Of a stretch of DNA of 62,667 nt, positions 14,285 through 45,672 are shown in pieces. The notes below the pieces were generated by a model. It did not search any database and was not told the DNA's origin. It was given only the letters and a program-made list of their open reading frames with translations. The first letter of the stretch is position 1; each line of letters begins with the position of its first letter. Position numbers and translations under genes: made by a program. Source of the stretch: Clostridia bacterium (lineage in GTDB: Bacteria > Bacillota > Clostridia > Christensenellales > Aristaeellaceae); contig JAZTZK010000354.1 of the NCBI GenBank assembly GCA_045637485.1, positions 1 to 62,667 on the forward strand, in the 5' to 3' direction.

Positions 14285-14452
14285 TCAGCATCTCTCTTGC
14301 CTTACATAGTGCCCGTTCCGATACATGTCCCCTATCTTATACAGGGAGACAGGATAACCAACGAAGGCGCACATGGCGAGATACTGGTATGCTTCGGGGT
14401 ATTCTTTCCGGTTAAGCTGTATCAAAATGATTCTCGTTTTCTCATTGGACAT
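14285..14452 (-). CDS. small Sel1-like-repeat (SLR) protein or fragment
   Basis: MSNEKTRIILIQLNRKEYPEAYQYLAMCAFVGYPVSLYKIGDMYRNGHYVRQ resembles a single SLR (A..w...AA..G...A...LG.MY..G). GGGAGAG RBS. Confidence 0.35.
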   Translation of the reverse strand: MSNEKTRIILIQLNRKEYPEAYQYLAMCAFVGYPVSLYKIGDMYRNGHYVRQERC

Positions 14453-14783
14453 GAGCTTCTCTCCCTTGCCATTCAGTCCTGATGTATTTACACCTACTTT
14501 GGCGGCGTAGACGCTGCCACGACTGAACAGATACTTTGAAAGATGAATACCGCTTGTACTTTTCAGAGCGCGATTTGATCGTATAGTATTCATTCATGGC
14601 TGCTATGGTTTCTGCACTGGGTTCATCCGTGGAGATGATGAAAGGAATGCCATGAACCTTCACGCATCTCTTTAGAAACATGTTGACTGCTGTGGATAAA
14701 TCCAACCCGAGTTCATCGAAGAGCTGGATGGAAGTCTGTTTGGTATCGCTGTCCAAGCTAAGATTCGTCGGGAACTTTGCCAA
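14442..14783 (-). CDS. RelB/DinJ-family type II antitoxin, 3' end overwritten by a repeat element; no cognate toxin gene
   Basis: AKFPTNLSLDSDTKQTSIQLFDELGLDLSTAVNMFLKRCVKVHGIPF is the DinJ ribbon-helix-helix. It uses a TTG start. The last ~30 codons (VSVQSWQRLRRQSRCKYIRTEWQ..) are encoded by repeat E. Confidence 0.65.
   Translation of the reverse strand: MAKFPTNLSLDSDTKQTSIQLFDELGLDLSTAVNMFLKRCVKVHGIPFIISTDEPSAETIAAMNEYYTIKSRSEKYKRYSSFKVSVQSWQRLRRQSRCKYIRTEWQGREAHVQ
14464..14534. repeat. mini-copy (E) of the GTATCTGTTCAGTC-TIR repeat family, without 24-bp units
   Basis: GACTGAACAGATAC at 14521-14534 is identical to the end at 31635-31648. The interior ..GGCGGCGTAGACGCTGCCAC / CCTGATGTATTTACACCTACTTTGGCGGCG matches the flanks of copies G and F. 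The opposite end is degenerate. Confidence 0.55.
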
Positions 14784-14807: not shown

Positions 14808-14851
14808 ATTTTACCATGATCATGCGCAATAGTCAACATAATATGCGCATG
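14808..14851 (-). promoter_or_regulatory. sigma-70-type promoter with palindromic operator upstream of the dinJ-like gene
   Basis: On the minus strand, TTGACT (14831-14836), a 17-nt spacer and TAAAAT (14808-14813). The inverted repeat CATGCGCA (14821-14828) / TGCGCATG (14844-14851) brackets the -35 element. Confidence 0.45.
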
Positions 14852-14865
14852 TGTGGAAGGTCAGG

Positions 14866-16445
14866 GTTACTACTCAGCCCACGAGGTAGGAAAACTTAAG
14901 TTAGTCTATAATAACCAAAAGGAGAATAGCCATTCACGTCGAATAATGAGAGATGAAAGGTGGCGAGACCATGGCGGGAATAAATGTTGAGCATGACATG
15001 TGGAAACACCTCATGGAGGTCATGGATCGCCTGGACAAAGTGGAGACAGAAGCACGGGAGCAACACAGGCGCGATAGCGCACGAATCAAGGAATTGGAAG
15101 CCAAGGTAGTGGAATTAGAGCAGCGCAATGCGGTATTGCAAAACGAGATCGACCGACTGAAGCATAAAGATGATACGGACAGCCACAATTCATCCTTGCC
15201 CCCATCAAGCGATCAGAAACCGGGAAAAGCGGCAAACGAATACAACCGGCGGAAAAAGACAGGCAAACCGAGCGGCGGCCAGAATGGGCATCCGGGTCGG
15301 ACATTGCGCCTCAAGGATTGTGTCGAGAAGTTGAAAGCGGCAGGAATCGAACCGGAGATCGAAGAGATCGGCAATGTGTCCAGGCCATATAAGGAACGAC
15401 TTGTTCTGGATGTCATGTTGAGGCCGAAAGCCATTTTGAAGCGGTTTCATGAGCAGGAGGACGGGAAATATCGGATTCCGGAGGAATACAACAGCGAGGT
15501 TGTATACGGAGCGGACATCAAGGCACTGACGGCGTTACTCTATGGACAGGGCGTTCAGTCGGCTGAAAGAATAGTGGAACTGATCAAGGCACTCTCTGGG
15601 GACATTATAGAAGTATCCCAAGGGACCATTTTTAGTTGGCTTGAAGCGCTGCACCAGAGTGCCGAAGCTGAAAAGAAGAAGATCGAAGAGCAATTGCTCG
15701 ACTTGCCCCAGGTGAGCACAGACGCGACAACAGTGAGTATGAACGGGCATCAGGCCTATATTCGCAATTTCAGCGATCGGCATTGGGTGTTCTATGCGCC
15801 TATGGAGCGAAAGAACATCGAAGCGCTGGCGAAGATTCCGTTCATGAAGAAATTCGCGGGCATCCTGACGCATGACCACGAGACAGCCTTGTACCACTTT
15901 GGAACAGACCACGCAGAATGCAACGTACATCTGATACGCTATCTGACAGCCAACACTGAGAATACTGGCCACAAGTGGAGCAGCAAGATGATCTCCCTTC
16001 TCTGCGAAGCGAACCGGTATCGAAAAAGGATGATGGCCAAACAGCAATACCACAGGGAACTCTGCTGCGCTTGGAATCACGCTTTGACGAGTTGCTCGCC
16101 TTTGCCAGACATGAGCGCAAACAGCATCCGGCCCGTTTCCGATGGGCCACCCAGGAAGAAACCTCACTGTTAAACCGATTGAAGAAATACAAGCAGAATC
16201 ACCTGCTGTTTCTTCACGATTTTCGCGTCCCTTTTGACAATAACATAAGCGAGCGATCTGCGCAAATGTAAGAATCGCCAGAAGATGGCCGGTGGCTTTC
16301 GTACTGCCCACGGCCTTGATATCTTTTGCTCTTTGCTCTCCATTACTGAAACCTGCAAGCCTCAAGCTATCAATTTGCTGGCTGCTTTTCGTTCACTCTT
16401 CTGTCATATCCCCATCTTCTCCTGATTTGTGGGCTGAGTAGTAAC
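14866..16445 (+). mobile_element. IS66-family insertion sequence (single-ORF, ISBst12-like organisation), 1580 bp
   Basis: Perfect 17-bp terminal inverted repeats: GTTACTACTCAGCCCAC at 14866-14882 and its reverse complement at 16429-16445. They enclose an IS66-type transposase gene. Confidence 0.85.
14971..16425 (+). pseudogene. IS66-family transposase with two frameshifts
   Basis: An N-terminal coiled coil, then NSSLPPSSDQKPGK, GHPGRTL and a DDE region (..THDHETALYHFG..HAECNVHLIRYL). The reading frame goes 1 -> 3 near 16040-16056 and 3 -> 1 at ~16251-16257 (..FDNNISER / DLRKCKNRQKMAGGFRT..). Confidence 0.8.
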
Positions 16446-16454
16446 GTTTTACCG

Positions 16455-16713
16455 GTAACAGCTCAGTCCCGTATGGAAAATGACAGAAACCCTTCGTAGG
16501 GACGCCATAATTAGCGTCCGGGGAACCTGTTACAGGGTCAACGGACGCCTATTTCTGGCGTCCCTACGGCTACGTTGATTCATTTGCGAGGATGGGACTG
16601 AACAGATATGGTTTTCAAAGATAATCCCGCCGCAAAATACCTGCGGGGTCGGCGTACACGCCGCCGACCCCGATCAAATGTCCGAACGCATGAAAGGTAC
16701 GCTGTGCAGTAAC
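16455..16713. mobile_element. MITE-like element D (259 bp) with perfect 8-bp target-site duplication
   Basis: Ends are GTAACAGCTCAG ... CTGTGCAGTAAC. TTTTACCG is duplicated at 16447-16454 and 16714-16721. The interior holds long hairpins (GTAGGGACGCC...GGCGTCCCTAC) and an internal GACTGAACAGATAT (16596-16609). Confidence 0.75.
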
Positions 16714-16829
16714 TTTTACCGTAACCATGCCTCATATCAGGCCGCAGGGAGAAGCCATCGAGGGCTTTATTATGTTAAAATAAAAACCAAATTAAATACG
16801 TAAGTATAGACCATCGTTCATAAAAAATA

Positions 16830-16859
16830 TGGACAATATAATTTACGATGTGGTATAAT
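16830..16859 (+). promoter_or_regulatory. sigma-70 promoter with extended -10 for the ABC operon
   Basis: TGGACA (16830-16835), an 18-nt spacer, then TGgTATAAT (-10 at 16854-16859). It sits in an AT-rich tract about 115 nt upstream of the permease ATG. Confidence 0.5.
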
Positions 16860-16972
16860 CAGTCAACACCAGGTGATGATATTGGGCAACGGCCGATAGA
16901 ATCATGGCGCTGAACAGTGGCGACAGCGGGAAAACTGACCGGGAAGAATACGGGGGAGGCTGAATACCGATC

Positions 16973-17650
16973 ATGACACTCTCAGACAAACTCTATACCA
17001 TCCTCATCAAGGGAGGCAGCTGGAAGACCATACTCGGCGGCCTGTGGGTAACGATTCAAATATCGTTTTTCGCCCTGCTGGTCGGCACGGTGCTGGGGGC
17101 GGTGATCTGCCTGCTGCGCACGCGGAACAATCCCGTTCTGCGGGGCGTCGCCTCGGTCTATATCGCCATACTGCGGGGCACGCCGGTGCTGATGCTGCTG
17201 CTCCTGCTGTACTATGGCGTGTTCGCCCGGGCGGGGCTTCAGCCGGTGACGGTGGCGGTGATCACCTTCGCGCTGAACGTGTCCGCCCACGTGGCGGAGC
17301 TGCTGCGCTCGGCGCTGTCCGCCGCGGACAGGGGCCAGGCCGAGGCCGCGCGCACGCTGGGCTTCTCCGCCTGGGATACCTTCCGGCTCATCACGCTGCC
17401 CCAGGTGCTGCGCATCGCCAAGCCCGTGTATCAGTCCACCGTGGTGAACCTGATCCAGTGGACCAGCGTGGTGGGCTATGTGACCATCACCGACCTGACC
17501 CGCGTCATCAACAACACCGCATCCCGCACGATGCAGCCGCTGCTGACCATCGGCATCGGCATGTTGATCTATCTGGCGCTGTCTTATATCATCTTTGGCT
17601 TGTTCGCACTGTCGGACAGGATAAAGAGCAGGGCGCATATGACAACCTGA
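16973..17650 (+). CDS. polar amino-acid ABC transporter permease (HisM/GlnP family)
   Basis: 225 aa with about 5 TM segments. The EAA-loop-like AARTLGFSAWDTFRLITLPQ is present. Confidence 0.85.
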   Translation: MTLSDKLYTILIKGGSWKTILGGLWVTIQISFFALLVGTVLGAVICLLRTRNNPVLRGVASVYIAILRGTPVLMLLLLLYYGVFARAGLQPVTVAVITFALNVSAHVAELLRSALSAADRGQAEAARTLGFSAWDTFRLITLPQVLRIAKPVYQSTVVNLIQWTSVVGYVTITDLTRVINNTASRTMQPLLTIGIGMLIYLALSYIIFGLFALSDRIKSRAHMTT

Positions 17651-17671
17651 CAAAATAAGGAGGAGGATTTT

Positions 17672-18526
17672 ATGAAAAAATGGACAACTCTGGTACTGGC
17701 TGCGCTGCTGGCGCTCTCCGCGCTGAGCATTCCCGCGATCGCGGAGGAGCAGGGCGTGCTTGGCCGCCTGACCAAGCTGAACGTGGATGAAGCTACGCTG
17801 ACCGACGCCATTGCCGAAAGCTATTTTGACAAGGTCCCCTTTTCAGGCTATCAGTTCTTTGATACGCTCAACAGCATGACCGCGGCGCTCTCCAGCGGGA
17901 TAATTGCCGGCCTGGCCGTTGACGCGCATACGGCGCAATACCTGCTCTCAAGGTCGGAGGACTTTGCGATTTATACGGCCCCGGAGGCGGTTCCCTCGTA
18001 TAATCTGGGCTTTTCCATGCTGCTGCGGGAGGAGGACGCGGAAATGTGCGCCGCCATCTCGGAGGCGATCGCGGAAATCGAGGCGGACGGCACGTTGGGC
18101 GCCTTGAAGCAGAGCTACATCGATGATGTCATCGCGGGCGTAGAACCCGATGCCGTGGTACCGGAGCGCTTTGACGGCGCGGAGACCTTCACGGTCGCGC
18201 TGACGGGCGACAGACCGCCGATGGACTATTTCTCCGCGGATGGAGCGCCGATTGGCTTCAACACGGCGCTCGTATCGGAGGTCGGCAGGCGGCTTGGCGT
18301 CAATATCGAATTCATCTCCGTGGACACCGGCGCGCGCGCCATCGCCCTGGCCTCGCAGCAGTGTGACGCGGTCTTCTGGATGGAGGCCGGAGATTTCGGC
18401 AACTGGGAAAACGCGGACGTGGAGGACCAGCCCGCGAATACCGTCGCCACCGTACCGTATCTCAAGGGTGCTTTCACCATCATCGTTTTGGCCGATTCAC
18501 CTTTGATTGACAACGAAGCGCAATAA
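17672..18526 (+). CDS. family-3 solute-binding protein, circularly permuted (paralog 1)
   Basis: Signal peptide MKKWTTLVLAALLALSALSIPAIA. SBP_bac_3-type sequence blocks are present, but the canonical C-terminal half precedes the canonical N-terminal half (FTVALTGDRPPMDYF..GFNTALVSEVGRRLGV). Confidence 0.8.
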   Translation: MKKWTTLVLAALLALSALSIPAIAEEQGVLGRLTKLNVDEATLTDAIAESYFDKVPFSGYQFFDTLNSMTAALSSGIIAGLAVDAHTAQYLLSRSEDFAIYTAPEAVPSYNLGFSMLLREEDAEMCAAISEAIAEIEADGTLGALKQSYIDDVIAGVEPDAVVPERFDGAETFTVALTGDRPPMDYFSADGAPIGFNTALVSEVGRRLGVNIEFISVDTGARAIALASQQCDAVFWMEAGDFGNWENADVEDQPANTVATVPYLKGAFTIIVLADSPLIDNEAQ

Positions 18527-18544
18527 GATGGGAGGCGAGGCGGC

Positions 18545-19642
18545 GTGAGCCTGATCGAAGTGAAGGGCCTGAAGAAATCCTTCGGCAGCCTGGAGGTCCT
18601 GAAGGGCGTCGATCTGACCGTGGAGCAGGGCGAGCGCATCGTCATCATCGGCGGCAGCGGCTGCGGCAAGAGCGTGTTCCTGCGCTGCCTGTGCCTGCTG
18701 GAGCAGCCCGACGCGGGACAGGTGCGGATCGACGGGCGGGACATCACCGCCGCCAGGGGCGTGCAGGTGGACGAGATTCGCCGCAGCATGGGCATGGTGT
18801 TCCAGAAGTTCCACCTGTTTTCCGAGATGGACGTGATGGACAACCTGTGCCTGGCCCCGACGCGCATTCTGAAAATGCCCCGGGCGGAGGCGGAGCAGAA
18901 GGCCATGGAGCTGCTCCAACAGGTGGGCCTTTCAAGCCGCGCCCACGCCTGGCCCACGGTGCTCTCCGGCGGACAGCAGCAGCGCATCGCCATCTGCCGC
19001 TGCCTGATGATGGGGCCGAAGGTGCTGCTGTTCGACGAGCCGACGAGCGCCGTTGTCCCCACCACGGTGGGCGAGGTGCTGGCGGTGATCCGTATGCTGG
19101 CCAAGCGGGACCTGAGTATGCTGATCGTGACCCACGAGATGAACTTCGCCCGCGAGGTGGCCAGCCGCGTGCTGTTCTTCGCCGACGGCGGCATCTACGA
19201 GCAGGGCACGCCCGATGAAATCTTCGATGCGCCGAAGCGGGAAAAGACGATCGCGTTTATCAACAAGATCAAGTACTTTACCTATGAGATCGCCCACCGC
19301 GATTTCGACCTGATGCAGCTCCAGGGCGGCATCCAGAACTTCGGCGAGAAATACGGCCTGAATCAGAAGCGCATTTTCAGATTGCGGGTCTGCTGCGAGG
19401 AGCTGATCTATGAACTGCTGGAGCACTGCTATCCCAGCGGGAACGATGTGGATTTGAAGCTGTCCGTGTCCCACGCGGAGTCGGACGGCGAGACGCACAT
19501 CGACCTCGATTGCGGCGGCGCGGCCTACAATCCCTTCGAGCAGGAAGAGTGCGGCCTGGGCGTGACCATACTGAAGAACATGGCCACGCGGCTGGACTAC
19601 CGCCGGGACGACGGCCTCAACCGCATATCGGTTCGCATCTGA
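18545..19642 (+). CDS. amino-acid ABC transporter ATP-binding protein with ~120-aa C-terminal extension
   Basis: Walker A GGSGCGKS, Q-loop MVFQKFHLF, signature LSGGQQQR, Walker B LLFDEPTS and H-loop VTHEM. The D-loop reads SAVV rather than SALD. About 120 extra residues follow the NBD. GTG start with a GGAGGCGAGG RBS. Confidence 0.85.
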   Translation: MSLIEVKGLKKSFGSLEVLKGVDLTVEQGERIVIIGGSGCGKSVFLRCLCLLEQPDAGQVRIDGRDITAARGVQVDEIRRSMGMVFQKFHLFSEMDVMDNLCLAPTRILKMPRAEAEQKAMELLQQVGLSSRAHAWPTVLSGGQQQRIAICRCLMMGPKVLLFDEPTSAVVPTTVGEVLAVIRMLAKRDLSMLIVTHEMNFAREVASRVLFFADGGIYEQGTPDEIFDAPKREKTIAFINKIKYFTYEIAHRDFDLMQLQGGIQNFGEKYGLNQKRIFRLRVCCEELIYELLEHCYPSGNDVDLKLSVSHAESDGETHIDLDCGGAAYNPFEQEECGLGVTILKNMATRLDYRRDDGLNRISVRI

Positions 19643-19648
19643 TTTTTC

Positions 19649-19882
19649 GTTACGGCTCAGCCTGCGGCTTCGCCTGTGTGGACGGGAGAGCAAGCTCCCC
19701 CCCCACGGCCACCCCCTCGCAGCCTCCTGCGCGCGCCCTTCGGGCACACTTGGAAGCTGTAAGGAAGGTATTTTTTGCTTGGGTCGTCAGGCCCCCGTCG
19801 CAAAAATACCTTCGGGGTCGGCGTACACGCCGCCGTCCCCGATCAACTGTCAGAAAGGACGAGATGTACGCTGAGTGGTAAC
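19649..19882. mobile_element. MITE-like element A (234 bp)
   Basis: Ends are GTTACGGCTCAG ... CTGAGTGGTAAC. Flanks are GATTTTTC (19641-19648) and GATTTTCC (19883-19890), a 7/8 match. The 5' half is near-identical to MITE B and the 3' half to the 3' half of MITE D. Confidence 0.75.
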
Positions 19883-19884
19883 GA

Positions 19885-20631
19885 TTTTCCCCCCTCCGAC
19901 GGGACGCGCTGAACGAGATTCTTCAGGATATTCTCTTCAATGTCATGCCGTTTTCGGGCTTCAAGTATTTTGATACGTTCAACAGCCTTATTCTCGCCTT
20001 TGGCAATGGGACGATCGAGGCTATAGAGGCGGATGAATACGTGACGGGTTTCCTGTCTTCCCGCATGGAAGACCTCGCGCTTTATATACCCGACGGCCTT
20101 CCCGAATACCAGTCGGGCTATTGCATGCTCCTGAGGGAAGAGGACGTCGAGCTACGCGATCGCATTTCCGAGGCGATTACGGATATGAAGGAAGACGGAA
20201 CGCTGGATGCCCTGAAGGCGCGCTATATCGACGATGTCATAGCCGGCAGCGAGCAGGAGGTGGTGACGCCGGAGCAATTTGAGGGCGCGGATACGATCCG
20301 GGTGGCCTTGACCGGCGACCGCCTGCCCATGGATTACTTCTCCGAATCAGGGGAAGCCAACGGCTTTAATACCGCGCTCGTGACGGAGGTCGCAAAGCGG
20401 CTGGGAATGAACGTCGAATTCATCTCCGTGGATACCGGCGCGCATGCCGTCGCCCTGGCTTCACATTCAACGGATGTCGTCTTCTGGTCTGAGGTGGGCG
20501 ATTACAACAACTGGGAGAAGGCCAACGCCGAGGATCAGCCGGAGAACACCATTGTGACGGCACCCTATCTCACAGGTACGCTCTTTTACATTGTCCCGCC
20601 GGATTCCCCGCTGGCAAACAAATCCCTTTAG
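19885..20631 (+). pseudogene. family-3 solute-binding protein paralog 2, lacking signal peptide/N-terminus
   Basis: The ORF opens immediately after MITE A. Similarity to paralogs 1 and 3 starts at ..LNEILQDILFNVMPFSGFKYFDTFNS. The first ATG (19945) leaves no signal peptide. Confidence 0.65.
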
Positions 20632-20707
20632 AGCTGCCCTTTAGGCAACCCGACGATGGAAGCGCCCTCCCGGCGCTCCCAAATATTTAACACTGGAGGT
20701 ACAAATC

Positions 20708-21592
20708 ATGAAAAGAATCGTTTCGCTGACCCTTGCTCTGCTGCTGGCGCTGTGCGCGCTTCCGTTCGCGTTTGCCGAGACACAGGACGACACCGAAGCT
20801 ATTCCGGAGGACTACGGCGCATTGGGTATACTGAGGAAGATGAATATTACCGCGGAGGAGTTGAATGAAATCCTTGCGGAGCCACTGGTCGAATTGAGCT
20901 ATTACGACAGGTTCGCGGATTACGACACGGTGACCAGCCTGATCATGGCGCTGAACGTCGGGGAGATTGCGCTCATCAGCGTCGATGGCAACACTGCGAA
21001 GTACATCGCTTCCAGAAACGAGCATTTTGTGGTGCGCATCCCCAATGACGGTGATTACATGCTGGGCTACTCCATGCTGCTCCGGGGGGAGGACAGGGAG
21101 CTGTGCGAAAGGATGTCCGGGATCATCCGGGAAATGAAGGGTGACGGATCGATGGAGGCCCTGAGAAAGACCTATATCGACGATGTGATCGCCGGAAACG
21201 ATCCTGTAGAGGGCATCGTGCCGCAGTCCTTTGAGGGCGCGGACACGATCCGCGTGGCTGTGACGGGAGATCGTCCGCCGATGGATTACATTGCCCCCGA
21301 CGGGACGCCGATGGGCTTTAATACGGCGCTGATCGCGGAGATCGCCAAGAGGCTTCAAATCAATGTCGAACTGGTCAGCTTCGACAGCGGCGCGCGCGCC
21401 ATCGCCCTGGCCTCCGGCGCCGCGGACGTCATCTTCTGGTCCCAGGGCGCGAATTTTGACAACTGGAGCGACGCGGACAGCGAGGATCAGCCCGAAGGAA
21501 CCGTCGTGACCGAGAGCTATCTTTCCTCCCCCTGCCGCTATGTTGTGCTGGATTCCTCGCCGCTGGCGGATATCCTGGAGCCGTGGGAGTAA
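20708..21592 (+). CDS. family-3 solute-binding protein, circularly permuted (paralog 3)
   Basis: Signal peptide MKRIVSLTLALLLALCALPFAFA. It has the same permuted block order as paralog 1 (..IRVAVTGDRPPMDYIAPDGTPMGFNTALIAEIAKRLQI.. in the C-terminal half). Confidence 0.8.
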   Translation: MKRIVSLTLALLLALCALPFAFAETQDDTEAIPEDYGALGILRKMNITAEELNEILAEPLVELSYYDRFADYDTVTSLIMALNVGEIALISVDGNTAKYIASRNEHFVVRIPNDGDYMLGYSMLLRGEDRELCERMSGIIREMKGDGSMEALRKTYIDDVIAGNDPVEGIVPQSFEGADTIRVAVTGDRPPMDYIAPDGTPMGFNTALIAEIAKRLQINVELVSFDSGARAIALASGAADVIFWSQGANFDNWSDADSEDQPEGTVVTESYLSSPCRYVVLDSSPLADILEPWE

Positions 21593-21656
21593 GATTTTCG
21601 GCGGCGCAATCATCGTGGAGAACGCTATAACGGGTTTGAAACCCGTACCATAGAAA

Positions 21657-21726
21657 CAGATCCCCCGCTTCATTCGGGATGACGGCGATTTGACGCCACG
21701 TCATCCCGAACGGAGCGGGGGATCTG
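21657..21726. repeat. long near-perfect palindrome (28-nt arms, 14-nt loop)
   Basis: CAGATCCCCCGCTTCATTCGGGATGACG (21657-21684) pairs with CGTCATCCCGAACGGAGCGGGGGATCTG (21699-21726), with 26 of 28 positions complementary. Confidence 0.5.
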
Positions 21727-21772
21727 TGTGATCATGTGCGGCCTGTCGTGAGCGCTCGGCGCACCCTCCGCC

Positions 21773-21991
21773 GTTACGGCTCAGCCTGCGGCTTCGCCTG
21801 TGTGGACGGGGGGCAGGCTCCCCACCACGGCCACTCCCCGCAGCTTCCCGCGCGCGCCCTTCGGGCACACCCGGAAGCTGATAAGAGGTGTTTTCTTTGG
21901 AAAACGCCCCGTCCCCGACGTACACGCCGCCGGGGACGATTGTAAATCGGGGGTTGCGACCCCCGATACCCCCGTGGGGCTGAGCTGTAAC
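21773..21991. mobile_element. MITE-like element B (219 bp)
   Basis: Ends are GTTACGGCTCAG ... CTGAGCTGTAAC. The first ~125 nt are near-identical to MITE A. It has no duplication of its own (left flank CCTCCGCC, right flank AGGTCAGG). Confidence 0.7.
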
Positions 21992-22263
21992 AGGTCAGGT
22001 TTTCATCCGTCTAAAGCCTGCGTCTATGGTGCGGGAATGCCTGGACCGACGTAAGCGTCAAATATAACCGCGTCCGCACTTCTCTTTGACAGCCGGGTTC
22101 CAAGGCGCTGCCTGCGCGAGGAATCAGCGACTCCAAATGTGCGACCAGAACAGGCGGCAGCGTTCCTTTTTCAGGCGCTGCCGTGTGTATTTTGGTCTAT
22201 GCGTAAGACTGATTATATGATATAATGAAGCTGACCAATCAGGATATACAGGAGAAAGCGTAA

Positions 22264-22872
22264 ATGGATTTGAACAGGATGATACCCAAAGTAGGTTCAG
22301 CGATCGTAACGGTTACAGTATTTCTGTTTGCGATATTTGAGATCATCAATTTCTCTATGGGCAGCTTCTTTGTCTGCCTGATTCTGCCGATTGGTTTTAT
22401 CCTGATGACGGCAGGTCTGCACTACGAGTGCGAAAGCAACCGCAAAGTCGCTGCGAATATTGGGATGGTTTTTGCGGCGGTGTACTGCATGCTGATCATG
22501 GTCGTCTACTTTGCTCAGCTGACCACGGTAAACAACGAGCAACTGACCGAACAGGCGGCAAAACTGCTCGATATAAGTAAGTTCGGACTGATCTTCAACT
22601 ATGACCTGCTGGGTTATGGCATAATGGCTCTCTCTACTTTCTTTACCGGACTTTCGATGAAAGCAAAGAACAGGACAGACAAGTGGCTCAAAGCACTGAT
22701 GATGATACATGGCGTGTTCTTCTTCAGTTGCAGCTTTATGCCGATGACGGGAATGTTCTCAAGGATGTCTTCTGACGGTGGTAGTATCGGCGGAAGGCTC
22801 GCTCTTGTGGCGTGGTGTGTATATTTTCTGCCCGTCGGAATTCTTGCTTTCCTGCATTTCCGAAAAAAATGA
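22264..22872 (+). CDS. integral membrane protein, function unknown
   Basis: 202 aa with about 6 hydrophobic segments, in a low-GC region. A TATAAT-type promoter lies upstream (~22222-22232). Confidence 0.6.
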   Translation: MDLNRMIPKVGSAIVTVTVFLFAIFEIINFSMGSFFVCLILPIGFILMTAGLHYECESNRKVAANIGMVFAAVYCMLIMVVYFAQLTTVNNEQLTEQAAKLLDISKFGLIFNYDLLGYGIMALSTFFTGLSMKAKNRTDKWLKALMMIHGVFFFSCSFMPMTGMFSRMSSDGGSIGGRLALVAWCVYFLPVGILAFLHFRKK

Positions 22873-25342: not shown

Positions 25343-25792
25343 ATGCAGACAATATCATTTGCGGAAGGAAACGAGCAGCATCTGAAAGATTGCATGGACG
25401 CGCTATGCCGCTCGGTACTTGGCGAAAAATGCTCTTCTTCCCCAGGGAGCACGGAAAACGCAAACCTTGAAGGGATTCTCCGGGGGAATTTGTATGTTGC
25501 GCTCATCGCCGAGTACAAAGCCGCTGGTCGGCGCAAGGAGATCGAAGGCGCACTGAAGGCGCTGCACCGGGACAGCCGCGAGGCGGCCATCCCGGAAGAC
25601 CTCTGTTTCGTGTATGGAGTGTATCCGGAAGACTACCTCCACGACGTGGAGATTTGCCAGCGGTTTGCCCCCAGAAGCCGGGAGCGGATGGCGGAAATCA
25701 TTCTCGGACGGTATCTGTTCAGTCATGGCGGCGTAGACACCGCCGCTACGAGGAGATATGCCTGTAGCGGCGACACGAAGTTAGTCCTTTAG
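25343..25792 (+). CDS. hypothetical protein (possibly degraded GNAT-like); C-terminus encoded by repeat element G
   Basis: The start MQTISFAEGNEQHLKDCMDALCRSVLGEK resembles some GNATs, but later motifs are not recognisable. The last ~27 codons and the TAG stop lie inside repeat 25711-25816. Confidence 0.3.
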   Translation: MQTISFAEGNEQHLKDCMDALCRSVLGEKCSSSPGSTENANLEGILRGNLYVALIAEYKAAGRRKEIEGALKALHRDSREAAIPEDLCFVYGVYPEDYLHDVEICQRFAPRSRERMAEIILGRYLFSHGGVDTAATRRYACSGDTKLVL

Positions 25793-25816
25793 GGCGACAC
25801 GTAGTTAGTCCTTTAC
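25711..25816. repeat. left-end half-copy (G) of the second repeat family: TIR + hairpin module + 2 x 24-bp units
   Basis: GTATCTGTTCAGTC is at 25711-25724. The units GGCGACACGAAGTTAGTCCTTTAG (25769-25792) and GGCGACACGTAGTTAGTCCTTTAC (25793-25816) follow. Confidence 0.7.
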
Positions 25817-27039
25817 AGAGGCAGTTTTCTACCCTGCTTCTTCCATTCCAGGAACTCAGCGGTAGCTGTGAAGATCACGTCGCCGGAAGAATTCAACGCC
25901 GTTTCCAGGGAATCCTGGATCACGCTGATGATGAAGCCAACGCCCACCAGCTGCATGGCGGTGTCATTCGATATGCCGAACAGAGAGCAGCCCAGGGGCA
26001 CCAGCATCAGCGATCCGCCCGCCACGCCGGAGGTACCGCAGGCCGAGAACGTTGCCACGATACTCAGGAAAATCGCCATCGGTAATGTAACATGAACGCC
26101 CGTGGTAAACGCAGCCGCCAGGGAGAAGATGGTAATGGTCACCGCCGCGCCGTCCATATTGATGGTGGAGCCCAGAGGAATCGACACCGAATACAGATTC
26201 TCATCCAGGCCCAGCTCCTTGCACAACTCCATGTTCACAGGGATATTGGCCGCGGAGCTTCGGGTGAAGAAGGCGGTGACGCCGCTCTGCCTGAGGCAGC
26301 GCAACACCAGCGGATAGGGGTTGTGTCGAAGCACCAGTCCCACGATCACCGGATTTACCACCAGCGCTACAAAAAGCATCGTGCCCACCAGCAGGCCGAT
26401 CAGCTGGCCGTAGGTTTTGAATATCTCCGCTCCACTGGACGATACGGCGCTGAATATCAAACCCAGTATGCCGAAGGGCGCGCAGGCGATAACCCAACGC
26501 ACCACCGCGGATACTGCGTCGGCCAGGTCTTCCATCATTTGCTTGGTACCCGGCTTAGCCAGCTTCAACGCAATCCCGAACACCACAGCCCAGAACAGTA
26601 TACCGATGTAATTGGCACTGGCAAGCGCTTCCACAGGATTGGCAATGATGCTCCCCAACAGGTTTATCACCACTTCGGACATCCCCTGTGGTGCGGCGGA
26701 GGCGTCCGCGGCCTCCAGGCGCTTCAGTGGAATAATCACCGGAAAGGCGAAGCTGGTAACCACAGACACGATCGCCGCACATAGAGTGCTGAAAAGGTAC
26801 AGGATGATGACTGTACGGAACTTGGCCATGCTGCCACCCTTGGAGTTGGCCAGGGATGACGCGACGAGCACAAATACCAGGATAGGAGCAATGGCTTTCA
26901 ACGCGCCGACGAACAAATCGCCAATCACACCGATCCACTTGAGCCCCGGCGCAACAAAACCCAACACCGCGCCGATGATCAATCCAATCAGGATTCGCGC
27001 AATCAGGCTCATGGAATTCCATTTCTTGATGATACCCAT
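25813..27039 (-). CDS. sstT: serine/threonine:sodium symporter SstT (DAACS family)
   Basis: MSLIARILIGLIIGAVLGFV.. and conserved blocks such as ..SSAANIPVNM.. and ..PLGSTINMDGAAV... I chose the ATG at 27039 (GGGGTG RBS). The stop codon is supplied by the last repeat unit. Confidence 0.85.
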   Translation of the reverse strand: MGIIKKWNSMSLIARILIGLIIGAVLGFVAPGLKWIGVIGDLFVGALKAIAPILVFVLVASSLANSKGGSMAKFRTVIILYLFSTLCAAIVSVVTSFAFPVIIPLKRLEAADASAAPQGMSEVVINLLGSIIANPVEALASANYIGILFWAVVFGIALKLAKPGTKQMMEDLADAVSAVVRWVIACAPFGILGLIFSAVSSSGAEIFKTYGQLIGLLVGTMLFVALVVNPVIVGLVLRHNPYPLVLRCLRQSGVTAFFTRSSAANIPVNMELCKELGLDENLYSVSIPLGSTINMDGAAVTITIFSLAAAFTTGVHVTLPMAIFLSIVATFSACGTSGVAGGSLMLVPLGCSLFGISNDTAMQLVGVGFIISVIQDSLETALNSSGDVIFTATAEFLEWKKQGRKLPL

Positions 27040-27242
27040 AATCCACACCCCACATGCTTGTTTTATGAAATTATACCATCTTTATAGTCATTTGACAAGG
27101 AATATATGGACTCACAATCAACGTCGGCCGGATGCGTCAGCCCAATATCTTCATTCTCCCGGCAAGCAAGCGTCATGCCGCCTTATGCATGCTCAATATG
27201 ATCATCCCTTCATCCCTCCCAAAGCAATACCAGTGGAAAAAG

Positions 27243-28217
27243 CTATTCTGCGCTCACTCTCCATGTTTGATATTGAGATTTGTTTAACATACTTTGAAGT
27301 TGCTCTTCGTCCTCGCCAAGCCTGACCCTTCTGAACATCACCAACACGCGGTTGTCATTCAGACAGGTCGAAAGTGTCAATATTGCGTCACCCGGTTCAA
27401 CGATTACGGGAATATTGTACAGCGACCTGGCCTTCGCCCGATGGATATAATCATTGAATGCATCCACGGTATAAAAAGTCGCAATCCCCGTATACGGAAA
27501 ATATTGCTTTGATTCCATATCCTCCGGGGTGGACATAACGGCAAACACAATATAGCGTTCATTGCGAAACAGTGTGTTAAAGCTGATTATGCCATGTTTG
27601 TGTATGTAGCGCAGGTTTCGATAATGGATCAGTAATCCGAACATGCTGCCGTCGACCATATCGTGTCCGTGTATGACAAGGTGCTGTGTTTCAGCTTTGA
27701 AGGGATGTGTTTCATCCAAAAAGAGCGTGCCTGCCCTGTTCTTCTTGCCATTGAAATCGTGGTCGAGATAGTAACTGTTATTGCGATACACTACCGGCAG
27801 TCCAAGCACACCATCAATGTCCAGCCATCCAACCAGGTCAGTATTGCGCGCATATAGCTTTCGCAAGGGCATCTGAATCTCTTGCCCGATCAACTGATAA
27901 GTATCCAGAATTCTCTGTTCGGATTGGGTTTGAATGTCATCCCATAATAAATCTCTATCCGCTTCGTATGTAGCTGCAAAAGCCGGTGGCGCATTGGTTT
28001 TTGCGGCTTCAACCGCCTCCACATCATCAAGTGGCAGGGACTGTTGTTCATAGTCCCTGCCCAGGCTGTCATTGGTCATGCGCGTTTTCAGCGCGTTCCC
28101 GCAAAACATGAGCATCCTGAAGCCGCCATAGATGACGAGCATCGCACAAGCAATCATCAGCGCCCTTTGAATCTGTCTCCTGCGGGCTGCGATTCGCCTC
28201 TTCCCGGTCATATTCAT
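27243..28217 (-). CDS. srtB: class B sortase
   Basis: An N-terminal TM segment, then NTDLVGWLDIDGVLGLPVV..NNSYYLDHDF.., HLVIHGHDMVDGSMFG and the catalytic-Cys block LTLSTC. Confidence 0.8.
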   Translation of the reverse strand: MNMTGKRRIAARRRQIQRALMIACAMLVIYGGFRMLMFCGNALKTRMTNDSLGRDYEQQSLPLDDVEAVEAAKTNAPPAFAATYEADRDLLWDDIQTQSEQRILDTYQLIGQEIQMPLRKLYARNTDLVGWLDIDGVLGLPVVYRNNSYYLDHDFNGKKNRAGTLFLDETHPFKAETQHLVIHGHDMVDGSMFGLLIHYRNLRYIHKHGIISFNTLFRNERYIVFAVMSTPEDMESKQYFPYTGIATFYTVDAFNDYIHRAKARSLYNIPVIVEPGDAILTLSTCLNDNRVLVMFRRVRLGEDEEQLQSMLNKSQYQTWRVSAE

Positions 28218-28220
28218 CTT

Positions 28221-31169
28221 CTACCTGGTCAGGAAACTTTTGCGCCCATACAGAATACCGGCCATGCCCACAGCCAGCATCAGCAACCAAAGCATCGGTT
28301 TGGAGGTATCCCCTGTTTCGGGAATATCCGAAGGCGCATTTACATGAAGGACGGCAATTGTGCTCTCTGCCACATTTCCCTTTGAATCCCGTATGACGCA
28401 CTTATACTGATACCCATCATTTGAAAGATCGACGACGGATGTCAAATATTCCGCGCCGGTTGCGCCGTCGACAGCCACCCATCCCTTACCATCATTGCGG
28501 TTAATTAACCACTGATAGCTCAGGCCATCGCCCGTCGCGACAACCGCAAATTTCGCACGTTGTCCCTCGACGACGTATTGATCCTCGGGCTGGGTTTCGA
28601 TGCTGATCGGAGCCCCGGAGAACACTGCCGTAACCTGGATATGATTCGGTGGCACGGTCAGAATGGCGTTCGGGTCTTTGACATCGGAGATGATCGCCTG
28701 GACAGAGGTGGTTTCCCACCGCAGGAAGCGCGCGCCCTCGTCCGGAATGGCCGACAGGGCCACCTGCGTACCCGCCGCACATTTGATGTCGATATTCTTG
28801 ACGGCTCCGTTTCCGGAAGAGGAGAATTTCACATCGTACAGGGGGACTTCTTTAAATTTTGCCGTCACCGAGCTGTCTTTATTCACCGCAAATCTGTACT
28901 CTGGTTCGGTCCAGACGCACTTCCCGTCCACATACCAGCCCTCAAAACTGCCCCCGACGACGGGTTTTGCTGTGAGCTTCGCGAAGCTGCCATCCACGAA
29001 CCTGCCTCCGCCATAGGCGATGCCACACAGATTGTTACACCTGATGTTGACATCGTAATACCTGACGTTATCACCGCTGGACCGGCTGTGTATGGGAACT
29101 TCGCCATCCGGGCCTGTCAGCGTGTATCTGACAGAGGTGCCCTGATGTCCCGCCTCGCCATACATGTCTTCAGGAATCTCAGGGATGTCACCCACATATT
29201 CATCGCCCGCGGCAATGTCCATGTCATAGTAATTCTGCGTCAGGATGGGCTTGCCACTGGAGAGATGATATTCGCTGACGTGATAGTTCAGCTTTCCATC
29301 AACCGTCGCACGCATTTTGACGTTGTAATGCCGATCACCGGGGACTTGAATGATCTTTTCATCGTTTTCATTGATCGCGCAGAACACGGCGGCGTCAATG
29401 GTGACGGGTTTTTCAGACCGGATTCTCGCCACACTATGTCCTTTATCCACTTCGACGACTTCCACATCGACGGGGCAGTTGATGCGAATAACGCGTACGA
29501 TCTGCGGCATTTCACTAAAATCAGCATTGCGTCGGGCCATGACGCGCACCCATGCCAGCGTCATTTCCGCGTAATGGGCCTGGAGGAAGTTATATTCCCA
29601 CAACAGGTTGTCCAAAAACTGTATAAAACGAATATTCTGCGAGGCAATGGTTCGCGTCATGGCCACAAATACCTTACCCAGGCCCTCTATGAGCTTCACA
29701 ATATCTGAAATCTTCGATGCCATTCCCGAGGATTCCAATGCGTTTATGAATATCTGGGCGAACCGTTCACCAGACAGCTCCACCCGTTCCTCGAATGACA
29801 TCGTGCTGATCGAGAAGAAGGGAGCGATGATGTCTATTACACCCGCAAAGTCGTCGGCCATGAGCTTATCGCTCAGATCGGCCAGGAGTATACGGTAATC
29901 ATCGGTCTCCTTTCCGCCCATCAAATCCGCAAGCAGCGAAACCAGCGTGTCCTCCGCCACTCCCACGTAATTCGTCCTCAAATCAAAGCCGGTCGAAGCG
30001 ATATCATTGACAAAGGAATTCATGAGGATAGCATTGCTGAGGGATTTATCGTCCACCATCTCGATATCGATAAATGTACCGCCATCGAAAATGAAAAAGG
30101 GATCCACATCAATGCTCACGGTCCGCGCGTAATCCGGTACGTGATTGACGGTGTTTTCCTGATTGGTGATGACGGGAACGCCGCTGTTGTCGATGATGTT
30201 TTTGTATTCCGCCTCCATCTCCTTGAGCGCTGACGGATAATCCCCCGAGCTGATGTTAAACAGGTAGTGATCTTCTCCAAAGCGCGCGAAGTCCCAATAG
30301 GACATGGCCACCAGCGGCACCAGGTCGTTGACATTGAGGATATTGTGGATATTGCTGGCGCCTGGATGGCTGTCGCGCTCCTCTCTGGCGATTGACAGCA
30401 TGGTGCCCTGGGGCGCTTCAAATGTATAACAATACAGATCCTGTGGGCTGACCTTTGCGCCGTTGCCCAAATCATGTCCCATATTGAGGGCGCCGGCCGT
30501 GATGTTCGCCACTGCGCCACCACGGCTGTAGCCCACCAGCCAGAGCTTGATCGGGCCCGAAATATCATAGTCCCTGATGTACTGCGACAGAAATTCCAGC
30601 GCCTCGTCGCGGGCGATGGAAAAGCCGAGGTGTTCGCCTGAGCCGCCGAGCTGGAAATTGCTGCCCCATTCCCTCCTATAGCCGCCGCCGCGTATCAGCA
30701 GGGCGATCAGGGTCTGACCCTCAATCTCCTTTTTCGCGGCGACGGCGCCGATTGAGTTGATGGAAGGTGCCTGGCTCCAGAATTCGTTTTGCTCAAAGTC
30801 CATAAAGCCAATGCCATCCTCGCCCGTCAACAGTGTGCGGGCGTTTTTTGTTTTATTGGCTCACTCGCTTTCTTCGTTGCTCGGCCATGTTGACAGTTCG
30901 AGGCACAGGGACATTTCCGCCAACTCCCAGCTGAACTGTGTGGCAGGCTTCTTGAAGAAATCGTCGGAATATTTATAGATCGCGGAAGCATCCAGTTCCC
31001 CGTTAAATGAGCCTGGGAATTTGAAGGCGTCAATCTTTGAAATCCCCCCCTCGGCCTGAACGGGAAACGCCGGTATTGGACCCGACAGCATAATGCCGGC
31101 CATGATGATGCCGACCATGATGAAGCTCAACCACCGCGTGAAAGCCGTCTTCACTTCATATTCCTCCAT
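28221..31169 (-). pseudogene. cell-wall-anchored lipase/alpha-beta-hydrolase-like surface protein interrupted by one in-frame TGA
   Basis: The two track ORFs (30861..31208 and 28221..30830) are in the same frame. They are separated only by the TGA at 30861-30863 and ten sense codons. The upstream piece has the signal peptide (..WLSFIMVGIIMAGIMLSGPIPAFPVQAEG). The downstream piece has the GYSRGG nucleophile elbow, an InlB-B-repeat-like segment (FEGWYVDGK), an Ig-like domain and a C-terminal sorting signal (IPETGD, then a hydrophobic stretch, then RKSFLTR). Confidence 0.75.
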
Positions 31170-31498
31170 CTTTTGTTGTGCATTGATACTATGAAAAGCA
31201 GCTTCCACAGCCCTTTGAAGGTATATACGTCGCCGGACTGACTGGTGAGATCGACTTCGCAGAGCTTGTTCTTGTAGTCATAGTCCGACGCCATCTTTGC
31301 AGCAGCTCGTCCAGCTTTTCCAGCTGGTAATAGCGAAGCAATGCGGCGTTTAGTAGCATCCTTTCATCGTTCCTCCATGCGAAAAAAGGTCTATGTAACT
31401 GTGACTCCATATCCTCAAAATCAAATCATATAATACTATAGTTTTGGTATTGATTCCATTTCTCAAATATAACAAATCCATTATAATTTGAACATATT

Positions 31499-31648
31499 AG
31501 CGACACGAAGTTAGTCCTTTAGGGCGACACGTAGTTAGTCCTTTAGGGCGACACGAAGTTAGTCCTTTAGGGCGACACGAAGTTAGTCCTTTAGGACGGC
31601 CTCCAGGCCGCCAAAGCAGGTGCAAATACATCAGGACTGAACAGATAC
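31499..31648. repeat. right-end half-copy (F) of the second repeat family: 4 x 24-bp units + hairpin module + TIR
   Basis: Units are at 31499-31522, 31523-31546, 31547-31570 and 31571-31594. Then GACGGCCTCCAGGCCGCCAAAGCAGGTGCAAATACATCAG, then GACTGAACAGATAC (31635-31648), the exact reverse complement of 25711-25724. Confidence 0.75.
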
Positions 31649-32659: not shown

Positions 32660-34006
32660 TTACGCCTTCGATACGTCGGCGCTGCGCGGATATCTCCATT
32701 TCAGCATCGCCGCGCAAAGGATCGCCGTGATCAGCGACGCCAGCGGCGTGGCATACCAGATGGCGTTCGCGCCGAAGAGCGCCGGCACCAGGTAGACCAT
32801 CGCCACCGGGGCCGCCAGTGATTCGCATACGGCGATCAGCGCGGAGGCCAGGCCGTCACCCAGTCCGGTAAATACGGACGAGACGACCAGATTAAAGCCG
32901 TAGAACAGGCAAGCCAGCGACGAGATGCGAAGCGCCTGCATTGCCAGACCGCGGGCAGCGTCGTCATAGCCCAGGTAGACGCTGGCGATGGGGCCGGCGA
33001 AGGCCGCGCACAGCAGGCACATCACCACGCCCAGCCCCACCGACAGGAGGCTGCCTGTGCGCGCCAGGCTGTCCAGCTCCTTCCTGTTCTTCGCGCCGTA
33101 CTGGTATCCGACCACCGTGACCATTGTGCTGGAGATGCCGAAAAACACGGCCATGAACAGCTCGATCACATAGTTGTACACGCCCATCGCCGCCACGCCG
33201 ATCTCCCCGATGTAGCGGGTCAGCTGGCTGTTGATCACCAGCTGGGTCAAATTCGCGGTGAGGCCGTCAACCATTTCGGAGAATCCGTTGCCGCAGATCC
33301 GGCCCAGCTCACGCAGGTGGGCCATGTTTACCCGGACCAGTCGCAGAGACGAGGCGTTGGGCCGGAGGAAGTACACGGCGGTGAACCCGGCGGTGATCAG
33401 CGCCGACAGGGACGTGGCCAGCGCCGCGCCCCGAACGCCCCAGCCCAGCGGGCCCATGAACAGCCAGTCCAGCAGCACGTTCAGCGCCCCGTTCACCACG
33501 GACACCCACATGCCCAGTACGGGCTTTTCCGCGGTGATCCACAGCGACTGGAACGCCGCGTTGACCAGATAGGCGGGTAAAAACGCCGTCAACAGCCGCC
33601 CATAGTCGACGCAATAGGGGATGGCGGCCTCCGTGGCACCCACCAGCCGCGCCAGGGCGGGCATCAGCGCCGTCGCCAATCCGCCCAGCACGATCCCCAG
33701 CAGCATCATGACCACCATCGACAGGGTGAACACCTCCCGGCCCTTCTGGCGCTCACCCTCGCCCATCAGCTGGGCCACGAGAGCGCTGGTGCCGGAGCCG
33801 AACATGAAGCCCAGACCGTAGAGCACGAGAAACGCCGGGGAGATGAAGTTGACCGCCGCGAAGGGGGTCACCCCAAGGTAGTTGGACACGAACACCCCAT
33901 CCACCAGCTGGAACGAGGTGATCGCCAGCATCTGGCCGATGGCGGGCAGGGAATAGCGCAAAAGCTTTCCCCAGGTAAAGTGTTCCGAAAGCTCGATCTT
34001 CTTCAT
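32660..34006 (-). CDS. MATE-family efflux transporter (translationally coupled to the NRPS gene)
   Basis: 448 aa with about 12 TM segments. Its start overlaps the NRPS stop by 4 nt (ATGA). Confidence 0.85.
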   Translation of the reverse strand: MKKIELSEHFTWGKLLRYSLPAIGQMLAITSFQLVDGVFVSNYLGVTPFAAVNFISPAFLVLYGLGFMFGSGTSALVAQLMGEGERQKGREVFTLSMVVMMLLGIVLGGLATALMPALARLVGATEAAIPYCVDYGRLLTAFLPAYLVNAAFQSLWITAEKPVLGMWVSVVNGALNVLLDWLFMGPLGWGVRGAALATSLSALITAGFTAVYFLRPNASSLRLVRVNMAHLRELGRICGNGFSEMVDGLTANLTQLVINSQLTRYIGEIGVAAMGVYNYVIELFMAVFFGISSTMVTVVGYQYGAKNRKELDSLARTGSLLSVGLGVVMCLLCAAFAGPIASVYLGYDDAARGLAMQALRISSLACLFYGFNLVVSSVFTGLGDGLASALIAVCESLAAPVAMVYLVPALFGANAIWYATPLASLITAILCAAMLKWRYPRSADVSKA

Positions 34007-45356: not shown

Positions 45357-45473
45357 CCTGGCGTTCAAAACCAGTAAACCTGCGCAAAAGCGCCTTGAAA
45401 TTCATGTGACGCTTCTTGCGTGATATCTTACCCGCAACGGACGTCAACCACAAAGAGGTTTGCCCATTCTGCC

Positions 45474-45660
45474 GTTACGGCTCAGGGTCGACACGGTGGG
45501 ACCCCTCCGACCCCGCCTGTGGCGGGGCCACCTCCCCGACGCGAAGCTAGTCCTTTAGGACTTTCAGGGGAGGCAATCTCCAAAAGCCTCCCCTGAAAGG
45601 GGAGGTGCCGAGCGAAGCGAGGCGGAGGGGTTCCGAATAATCAGGACGCTGAGCTGTAAC
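45474..45660. mobile_element. MITE-like element C (187 bp) with perfect 8-bp target-site duplication
   Basis: Ends are GTTACGGCTCAG ... CTGAGCTGTAAC. ATTCTGCC occurs at 45466-45473 and 45661-45668. The interior has one degenerate 24-bp unit (GACGCGAAGCTAGTCCTTTAGGA) and a long hairpin (CAGGGGAGGC...GCCTCCCCTG). Confidence 0.85.
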
Positions 45661-45672
45661 ATTCTGCCGGGT

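Follow-up and report, generated by a model that had tools for sequence, protein, structure and literature searches.

The window, a 62.7-kb stretch (62,667 nt) of Clostridia DNA, harbors one insertion sequence (IS) of the IS66 family and four short non-coding elements that end with the same terminal sequence (Table 1). Three of the short elements, named D, A and B, are found downstream of the IS, before, inside and after an operon for a polar amino-acid ATP-binding cassette (ABC) transporter, and the fourth, C, lies farther along the window. [quoted passage not shown] Our analyses confirm the common ends and indicate that A to D are probably MITEs moved in trans by a transposase of the same IS group, the IS copy in the window being decayed.

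Table 1. Coordinates of the IS, the four MITEs and the candidate composite transposon (window positions)
Feature	Coordinates	Strand	Length (bp)	Details
IS66-family IS (ISBst12-group-like), defective copy	14866..16445	+	1580	Perfect 17-bp terminal inverted repeats
Left inverted repeat of IS	14866..14882	+	17	GTTACTACTCAGCCCAC; same sequence in intact relatives
Right inverted repeat of IS	16429..16445	-	17	GTTACTACTCAGCCCAC on minus strand; 17/17 identity with left repeat
Transposase pseudogene	14971..16425	+		Over three reading frames; Pfam DUF6444 and DDE_Tnp_IS66
MITE D	16455..16713	+	259	Ends GTAACAGCTCAGTC / GTTACTGCACAGCG; perfect 8-bp duplication TTTTACCG, 16447-16454 and 16714-16721
MITE A	19649..19882	+	234	Ends GTTACGGCTCAGCC / GTTACCACTCAGCG; flanks 7/8, GATTTTTC 19641-19648 and GATTTTCC 19883-19890
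MITE B	21773..21991	+	219	Ends GTTACGGCTCAGCC / GTTACAGCTCAGCCCCAC; flanks CCTCCGCC / AGGTCAGG, 1/8 match, no own duplication
MITE C	45474..45660	+	187	Ends GTTACGGCTCAGGG / GTTACAGCTCAGCG; perfect 8-bp duplication ATTCTGCC, 45466-45473 and 45661-45668
Candidate composite transposon	14866..21991	+	7126	IS left end to B right end; AGGTCAGG on both outer sides
Cargo of candidate composite: polar amino-acid ABC transporter operon	16973..21592	+		Permease, binding protein, ATPase, two more binding proteins; Pfam BPD_transp_1, SBP_bac_3 x3, ABC_tran

The similarity between the two inverted repeats of the IS continues beyond the 17 identical positions, with 83% identity across 29 nt. The open reading frame (ORF) of the IS matched the Pfam family DDE_Tnp_IS66 (PF03050) with 34.3 bits for a cut-off of 23.1, and DUF6444 was also found above its curated cut-off. 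The closest proteins in the databases are intact transposases of 487 amino acids (aa), up to 92% identical, which carry PF03050 and PF20042. An intact element of 1588 bp at locus L081, which encodes one such 487-aa homologue, is 92.5% identical to the window IS at the DNA level. Relative to L081, the window copy has a 7-bp deletion around position 16027 and a 2-bp deletion around position 16252, the latter in the invariant SERDLRKCK motif of the transposase. In the catalytic region, the frame is lost over approximately 75 codons, indicating that this copy is a pseudogene and is therefore unable to drive anything itself. Thus, the earlier proposal of an autonomous partner did not stand for the copy in the window, whereas the presence of MITE-type elements with the ends of this IS type was supported.

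A single transposase frame is present in the IS, with no tnpA or tnpB, and its intact relatives (1.59-1.9 kb) likewise contain one gene. This single-ORF layout without accessory genes is that of the ISBst12 group within the IS66 family (PMC12898284). P0002, the closest intact transposase, which we used as the reference for identity figures, scored below the curated cut-off of the NCBIfam IS66 model NF033517 (143.6 versus 180 bits, the model covering residues 168-482), and annotated plasmid relatives are only ~28-31% identical to P0002. We therefore read the IS as a divergent member of the IS66 family and did not take the NF033517 shortfall as an exclusion. The Pfam matches, the single-ORF layout and the group-type ends agree with the earlier assignment to an ISBst12-type element of the IS66 family, the placement in the ISBst12 group resting on the layout, on the published ends of the group member ISDge4 and on relatives retrieved by protein. 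The 8 bp that flank the IS, AGGTCAGG on the left and GTTTTACC on the right, are not a duplication. Directly left of the IS is a gene for a RelB-type antitoxin (Pfam RelB; 14442-14783, minus strand), and the promoter-like site of this gene, at 14808-14836, stops 30 bp short of the IS end.

The terminal motif was then counted in the window and in 100 shuffles of it. There are seven exact occurrences of GTTACNNCTCAGC in the window, for 0.00 expected, and they correspond to both ends of the IS, of A and of B, and to the right end of C. Allowing one or two mismatches added C's left end and the two ends of D. A search for the two-ended pattern returned A, B and C, with none expected, and a scan of the window with up to two mismatches per end yielded no element pairs beyond A to D. 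The 12-nt core is therefore common to the IS and to all eight MITE ends with zero to two mismatches, the MITE core reading GTTAC-nn-CTCAG at both ends. The preliminary description had reported a GTTAC-nn-CTCAGC core at the IS and at no fewer than four short elements; this observation is confirmed, and the motif is far above chance.

Target-site duplications of 8 bp were present directly outside three of the four elements, perfect for C and D (8/8) and with one difference for A (7/8), while B had a 1/8 match. Neither these duplications nor the broken transposase gene figured in the preliminary description. Eight base pairs is also the duplication length of the IS group, as found in relatives of the IS and in ISDge4. 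The announced size range of 187 to 259 bp was correct (187, 219, 234 and 259 bp), as was the lack of coding capacity, since the ORFs in A to D are all spurious, overlapping ones of a kind usual in high-GC DNA. They had also been described as packed with hairpins. When the elements were folded as single-stranded DNA and compared with shuffled sequences, this held for B, C and D (z = -4.3, -6.9 and -5.9, respectively) but was unclear for A (z = -1.6). A search of the whole window against Rfam at the gathering threshold matched no family and thus no known structured RNA.

The four copies in the 62.7 kb are related but non-identical, and their interiors are mosaic, as had been noticed before. The first 111 nt of A show 90% identity to the 5' portion of B; its last 80 nt show 85% identity to the 3' portion of D, with 94% identity across 49 nt. 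Their likeness to the IS is limited to the terminal 12-18 nt, and they have nothing in common with it beyond ~18 nt, which led us to reject the idea that they are internal-deletion derivatives of the window IS. At positions 6-7 of the terminus, the MITEs read GG, AG, CA or TG and the IS reads TA, so that all eight MITE ends differ from it there. The same two positions also vary between IS sub-lineages, as well as between the two ends of single, perfectly duplicated elements. The right end of B matches the IS over approximately 17 nt, and it matches the close IS lineage over CTCAGCCCC.

Two further observations concern the interior of D. An internal ATATCTGTTCAGTC (16596-16609) pairs with its left end, which gives D the look of a 155-bp inner element (16455-16609) fused to the 3' module that it has in common with A. 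An interior hairpin module of D (16495-16519), CGTAGGGACGCC..., was found outside MITEs as well, in metagenome contigs L150 and L113. In L150 (4468-4492), a MITE is inserted into this CGTAGGGACGCC... module, with the duplication CGTAGGGA. There seems to be a second family of small palindromic repeats in these genomes.

As for the sites that the MITEs occupy, A starts 6 bp past the stop codon of the ABC ATPase gene, and in the orthologous operons L211 and L213 the corresponding intergenic region is ~60-70 bp long and contains no MITE. The intergenic DNA of these orthologues is too diverged to fix exact empty sites. A 99.5% identical copy of B is present at locus L122, with the same left context and a different right flank.

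We determined whether the terminus is a property of the IS group by retrieving relatives with the transposase from species-representative genomes, independently of any DNA motif, and locating their inverted repeats afterwards. The closest relative in that collection has 59% transposase identity. The elements retrieved are 1.6-1.9 kb long and have ends of the form GT[AT]AC[AT][GA][TC]TCAGCC, with perfect 8-bp target duplications in at least 14 of them. GTWAC-nn-YTCAG(CC) is kept even where the transposases are only ~21-59% identical to the closest intact one. One element that is 56% identical, in a Christensenellales genome, has GTTACTACTCAGCC ends and the duplication ATTTTGAG; the window IS carries GTTACTACTCAGCC at both ends, in agreement with the termini published for ISDge4 and those of the protein-retrieved relatives. 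Plasmid copies of Anoxybacillus and Clostridium estertheticum, ~30% identical to P0002, start with GTAACTATTCAGCC and GTTACTGCTCAGCC, respectively. ISDge4 of Deinococcus geothermalis, which was placed in the ISBst12 group by its authors and whose transposition was observed, has the ends GTGACTACTCAGCA and GTAACTGCTCAGCA and an 8-bp direct repeat (PMC12898284). Closer to the window, intact relatives whose transposases have 92%, 86% and 73% identity to that of the window IS all end with GTTACTACTCAGCCC and thus keep the inverted repeats of the decayed copy, and the 86% lineage was present in at least four distinct flanking contexts. A difference of the repeats in intact copies, which the preliminary description had named as a refutation, was thus not observed. 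The terminus is unusually conserved across very divergent transposases.

Short elements with such ends were sought in metagenomes using the pattern GTTACNNCTCAG, a spacer of 161-221 nt and CTGAGNNGTAAC, which matched at least 120 stretches. The scan gave at least 122 short elements in at least 54 clusters of interior similarity, on contigs of 27-66% GC. Among those listed, at least 53 have 8/8 duplications, for ~0.002 perfect ones expected by chance, and at least 19 more have 7/8, i.e., 72 of the 122 listed are at 7/8 or better. Together with the duplications at three of the four window elements, this is a signature of DDE transposition. The two free positions of the motif are TA in 175 of 222 ends (111 distinct elements among those listed), as in the IS. 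At least three contigs (L136, L158 and L203) combine a MITE with an IS66-type IS whose ends match. The transposases of these ISs are only ~26-33% identical to P0002, and in L158 the similarity between MITE and IS ends runs past the 12-nt core. A 229-bp family on GC-rich contigs (L113, L150, L184 and L185) has perfect duplications in all four cases and has one end (GTTACAGCTCAGCGTCC) and an internal hairpin in common with C. In viral contigs the two-ended pattern matched once, without a duplication. MITEs with these ends are not confined to Clostridia, and the number of interior clusters suggests that they are common and diverse.

Altogether, we consider it likely, with good confidence, that the IS is a decayed single-ORF copy of ISBst12 type and that A to D are non-autonomous MITEs with termini of the same group, moved in trans. 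In the mechanism that we propose, the MITEs would have kept just the 12-18 nt of terminal sequence recognized by DDE transposases of this type, with the consensus GTWAC-nn-CTCAG(C), around unrelated, hairpin-rich and modular interiors. A transposase supplied by an intact IS of the same group elsewhere would bind both inverted ends in trans, and insertion of the DNA that they bound by an 8-bp staggered cut would generate the 8-bp duplications. If only the ends matter, any pair of left and right ends in facing orientation might be used together, and pairing of the ends of neighboring elements could create new mosaics and occasionally capture genes. Such interchangeable ends would explain both the mosaics, in which A shares its 5' half with B and its 3' half with D, and the 7.1-kb unit between the IS and B discussed below.

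Several points weigh against this interpretation. The only IS in the window is dead, and no intact copy was shown in the same genome, which is outside the searched collections. The MITE ends differ from those of the IS at positions 6-7, with further mismatches in D, and the true driver may therefore be a sister IS. The absence of any common sequence past ~18 nt leaves a descent of the MITEs from the window IS unsupported. No empty site was recovered for any of A to D, for the IS or for the composite, the presence/absence data consisting of the alternative flank of B and of a comparison between species of diverged intergenic DNA. The metagenome matches carry the core motif by construction, so that what they contribute independently is their duplications, the preference for TA and the ISs on the same contigs. 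Lastly, close intact IS copies on metagenome contigs have no duplications; we assume that chimeric assembly at repeats may be responsible.

The flanks of the IS and of B suggest a larger unit. AGGTCAGG, the octamer immediately left of the IS (14858-14865), is identical to that immediately right of B (21992-21999), the sole match between flanks of different elements among 25 comparisons, for which ~4e-4 would be expected by chance. The IS left end and the B right end are in inverted orientation, with this direct 8-bp repeat outside them. The segment of 7126 bp that they delimit holds the dead IS, D, the ABC transporter operon interrupted by A, and B. GC content is 45-48% outside both ends and 60% in the cargo. 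The contig of L122 (JAEIGA010657932.1, GCA_016852305.1; 1653 bp) is 98% identical to 20548-21991, and the two sequences part exactly after the final base of B, L122 continuing into unrelated DNA; B has no duplication there either. The orthologous operons L211-L213, with ATPases 85-86% identical, are found in unrelated contexts and lack a MITE where A, B and D are located in the window. As the origin of the common flank, we also considered homologous recombination between the IS and B and rejected it, as an inversion swaps flanks reciprocally and a deletion removes the interval, neither of which fits a single common flank in direct orientation.

These data fit a move of 14866-21991 as one unit through the IS left end and the B right end, for which we put the chances at roughly even, an event that would explain why B has no duplication of its own. 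The predicted empty-site junction is CATGTGTGGAAGGTCAGGTTTTCATCCGTC, in which 14865 is joined to 22000 with a single AGGTCAGG. Neither this reconstructed site nor the IS itself had a match in plasmids, and in viral contigs neither the junction nor the two MITE end sequences tried were found. An attempt to reach the empty site through homologues of a 202-aa membrane protein failed, as only the gene was conserved (87%) and the flanks differed. Exact look-ups of the relB-like gene product, the 202-aa membrane protein, a major facilitator superfamily (MFS) transporter and the ABC permease returned none on record, and that of the binding protein beside B returned the L122 contig only. As the empty site is missing, we treat the composite as a candidate. 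If an IS left end lay upstream of the L122 operon and were preceded by GACAAAGG, the composite would have moved at least twice. More broadly, we tentatively propose, as a view that falls a little short of probable, that the 12-nt terminus defines a very large, taxonomically broad and as yet undescribed superfamily of MITEs with interchangeable ends, and that pairing of an IS end with a MITE end moved the 7.1-kb operon into a low-GC island, flanked by AGGTCAGG, the same kind of pairing giving rise to the mosaics.

Two features near the right end of this segment are worth recording. A hairpin with 29-nt arms that are 93% complementary (21656-21727) sits just past the last binding-protein gene, before B; it is kept in L122 and is probably the operon terminator. 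The gene for the 202-aa membrane protein (22264-22872) belongs to no Pfam family, and the protein has homologues in more than 3600 database clusters, the best 120 being 79-89% identical. At three loci of one homologue, P0127, the gene alone is conserved and the flanks differ, in a cassette-like manner.

Other explanations were weighed against the mobilization of A to D in trans by an intact relative of the window IS. The MITEs might be of ISBst12 type and be driven by a sister IS with GTTAC[A/G]GCTCAG ends, the lineage of the window IS being an unrelated neighbor of the same group. The differences at positions 6-7 in all eight MITE ends (GG, AG, CA or TG versus TA) argue for such a driver, all the more as IS sub-lineages vary at exactly these positions, as the related MITE family of L113, L150, L184 and L185 has AG-type ends and as the window IS is dead. 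However, no IS with exact GTTAC[A/G]GCTCAGC ends was present among the 80 genome loci and the close homologues examined. Positions 6-7 also differ within single mobile MITEs with perfect duplications (L113 and L184) and within ISDge4, suggesting that such variation is probably tolerated. The close IS lineage whose ends match the right end of B over CTCAGCCCC, and the apparent joint use of the IS left end with that same end of B, also speak against a sister driver. The GTTACTACTCAGCCC lineage includes P0002. We regard a sister IS as the main alternative, though a rather unlikely one.

The elements could also be old, immobile fossils, in which case the AGGTCAGG match would come from coincidence or from some other rearrangement beside the IS and B. 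The diverged duplication of A (7/8), the degenerate ends of D and the dead local IS are all in keeping with age, and the empty site of the composite was not found. The lack of a duplication at B in L122 also suggests that its right flank may have been changed by an earlier deletion beside it. Nevertheless, the duplications of C and D are perfect, an 8/8 match in 25 flank comparisons is hardly expected by chance (~4e-4), and the step in GC content falls at both of the outer ends proposed, so that we find this account unlikely. Finally, A to D could be structured intergenic repeats, similar to repetitive extragenic palindromic (REP) sequences or bacterial interspersed mosaic elements (BIMEs), or terminator or protein-binding modules, with a palindromic motif that resembles the IS ends fortuitously. 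They are indeed intergenic and hairpin-rich, the minus strand gives a terminator-like hairpin score in the module common to A and D, and some interior hairpin modules occur outside A to D. REP/BIME-type repeats, however, are palindromic units without target-site duplication and are not bounded by IS-type inverted repeats, whereas 8-bp duplications (7/8 or better) lie directly outside the inverted ends of three of the four window elements and 72 of the 122 listed metagenome elements, the ends match those of the IS group over 12-18 nt, and Rfam has no match in the window. The duplications and the IS-type ends of A to D led us to rule out this last explanation, which is extremely improbable.

Other repeats were noted in the window. 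A 24-nt unit, GCGACACGAAGTTAGTCCTTTAGG, is repeated in tandem twice at 25770-25817 and four times at 31500-31597, at the borders of a 5.9-kb segment. Single copies of it are found inside C (45537-45561) and in an unrelated MITE on L179 (66-88; 23/23 identical). A unit of ~70 nt with palindromic ends, GTATCTGTTCAGTC...GACTGAACAGATAC, is nearly whole at 14472-14534 (minus strand), beside the relB-like gene, and is also split (25711-25744 and 31599-31648) around the segment 25745-31598, which holds genes for a sodium:dicarboxylate symporter, a sortase and a surface protein and no transposase. The 14-nt ends of the GTATCTGTTCAGTC...GACTGAACAGATAC unit are similar to those of ISBst12 type (two mismatches against the degenerate consensus), and no 8-bp duplication is present. 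On the basis of this arrangement, 25745-31598 and the ~70-nt unit could be a gene-carrying non-autonomous element and its miniature version. Farther along, an ORF of 2457 aa (34003-41376, minus strand) has internal repeats ~4.4 kb apart (families D3, D7 and D8), a spacing that would fit a multi-module enzyme.

Annotation pipelines would leave ISBst12-type MITEs as unexplained intergenic repeats. The motif GTWAC-nn-YTCAG combined with an 8-bp duplication offers a simple and specific search key, and the class of intergenic repeats that it makes accessible is probably large. If the 7.1-kb composite is real, a metabolic operon would here have been moved jointly by an IS end and a MITE end, a concrete example of how non-autonomous ends can extend the range of cargo in an IS group that has been little studied.

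Compared with known systems, the IS of the window resembles the ISBst12 group, exemplified by ISBst12 of Geobacillus stearothermophilus and by ISDge4, in its one DDE_Tnp_IS66 ORF without tnpA or tnpB, its size of ~1.6 kb and its GT[A/T/G]ACT[A/G]CTCAGC repeats, the 8-bp duplication being found in its relatives. The window copy differs in being a pseudogene that has no duplication of its own, and the nearest annotated plasmid relatives reach only ~28-31% identity to P0002. In composite transposons and mobile insertion cassettes (MICs), cargo lies between two IS-type ends and is moved by a transposase in trans, and MITE-flanked resistance cassettes occur in Acinetobacter. Like composite transposons and MICs (both mentioned in PMC3281130), the segment 14866-21991 has two inverted ISBst12-type ends, cargo genes and an 8-bp direct repeat; unlike them, it is bounded by one IS end and one MITE end instead of two copies of either, and its mobility is suggested by a single flank match.

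MITEs driven in trans by an IS are well known, and nothing is conceptually new here in that respect. Correia elements and MITEAba12 are MITEs tied to a partner IS by their inverted repeats. A further example is a 240-bp MITE of Cardinium with the ends of an IS982-family element, ISCca4 (PMC9769881). In the literature we found no MITE linked to IS66 or ISBst12, co-mentions of the two concerning other families; ISfinder was not covered by this search, and an earlier description is possible. A to D are similar to IS-linked MITEs in being short and non-coding, with IS-like ends and duplications of the length made by the partner, and in occurring in several intergenic copies. They differ from them in that their partner belongs to the IS66 family and its ISBst12 group, and in that their interiors are mosaics of halves that recur between elements and of small hairpin modules rather than variants of one consensus.

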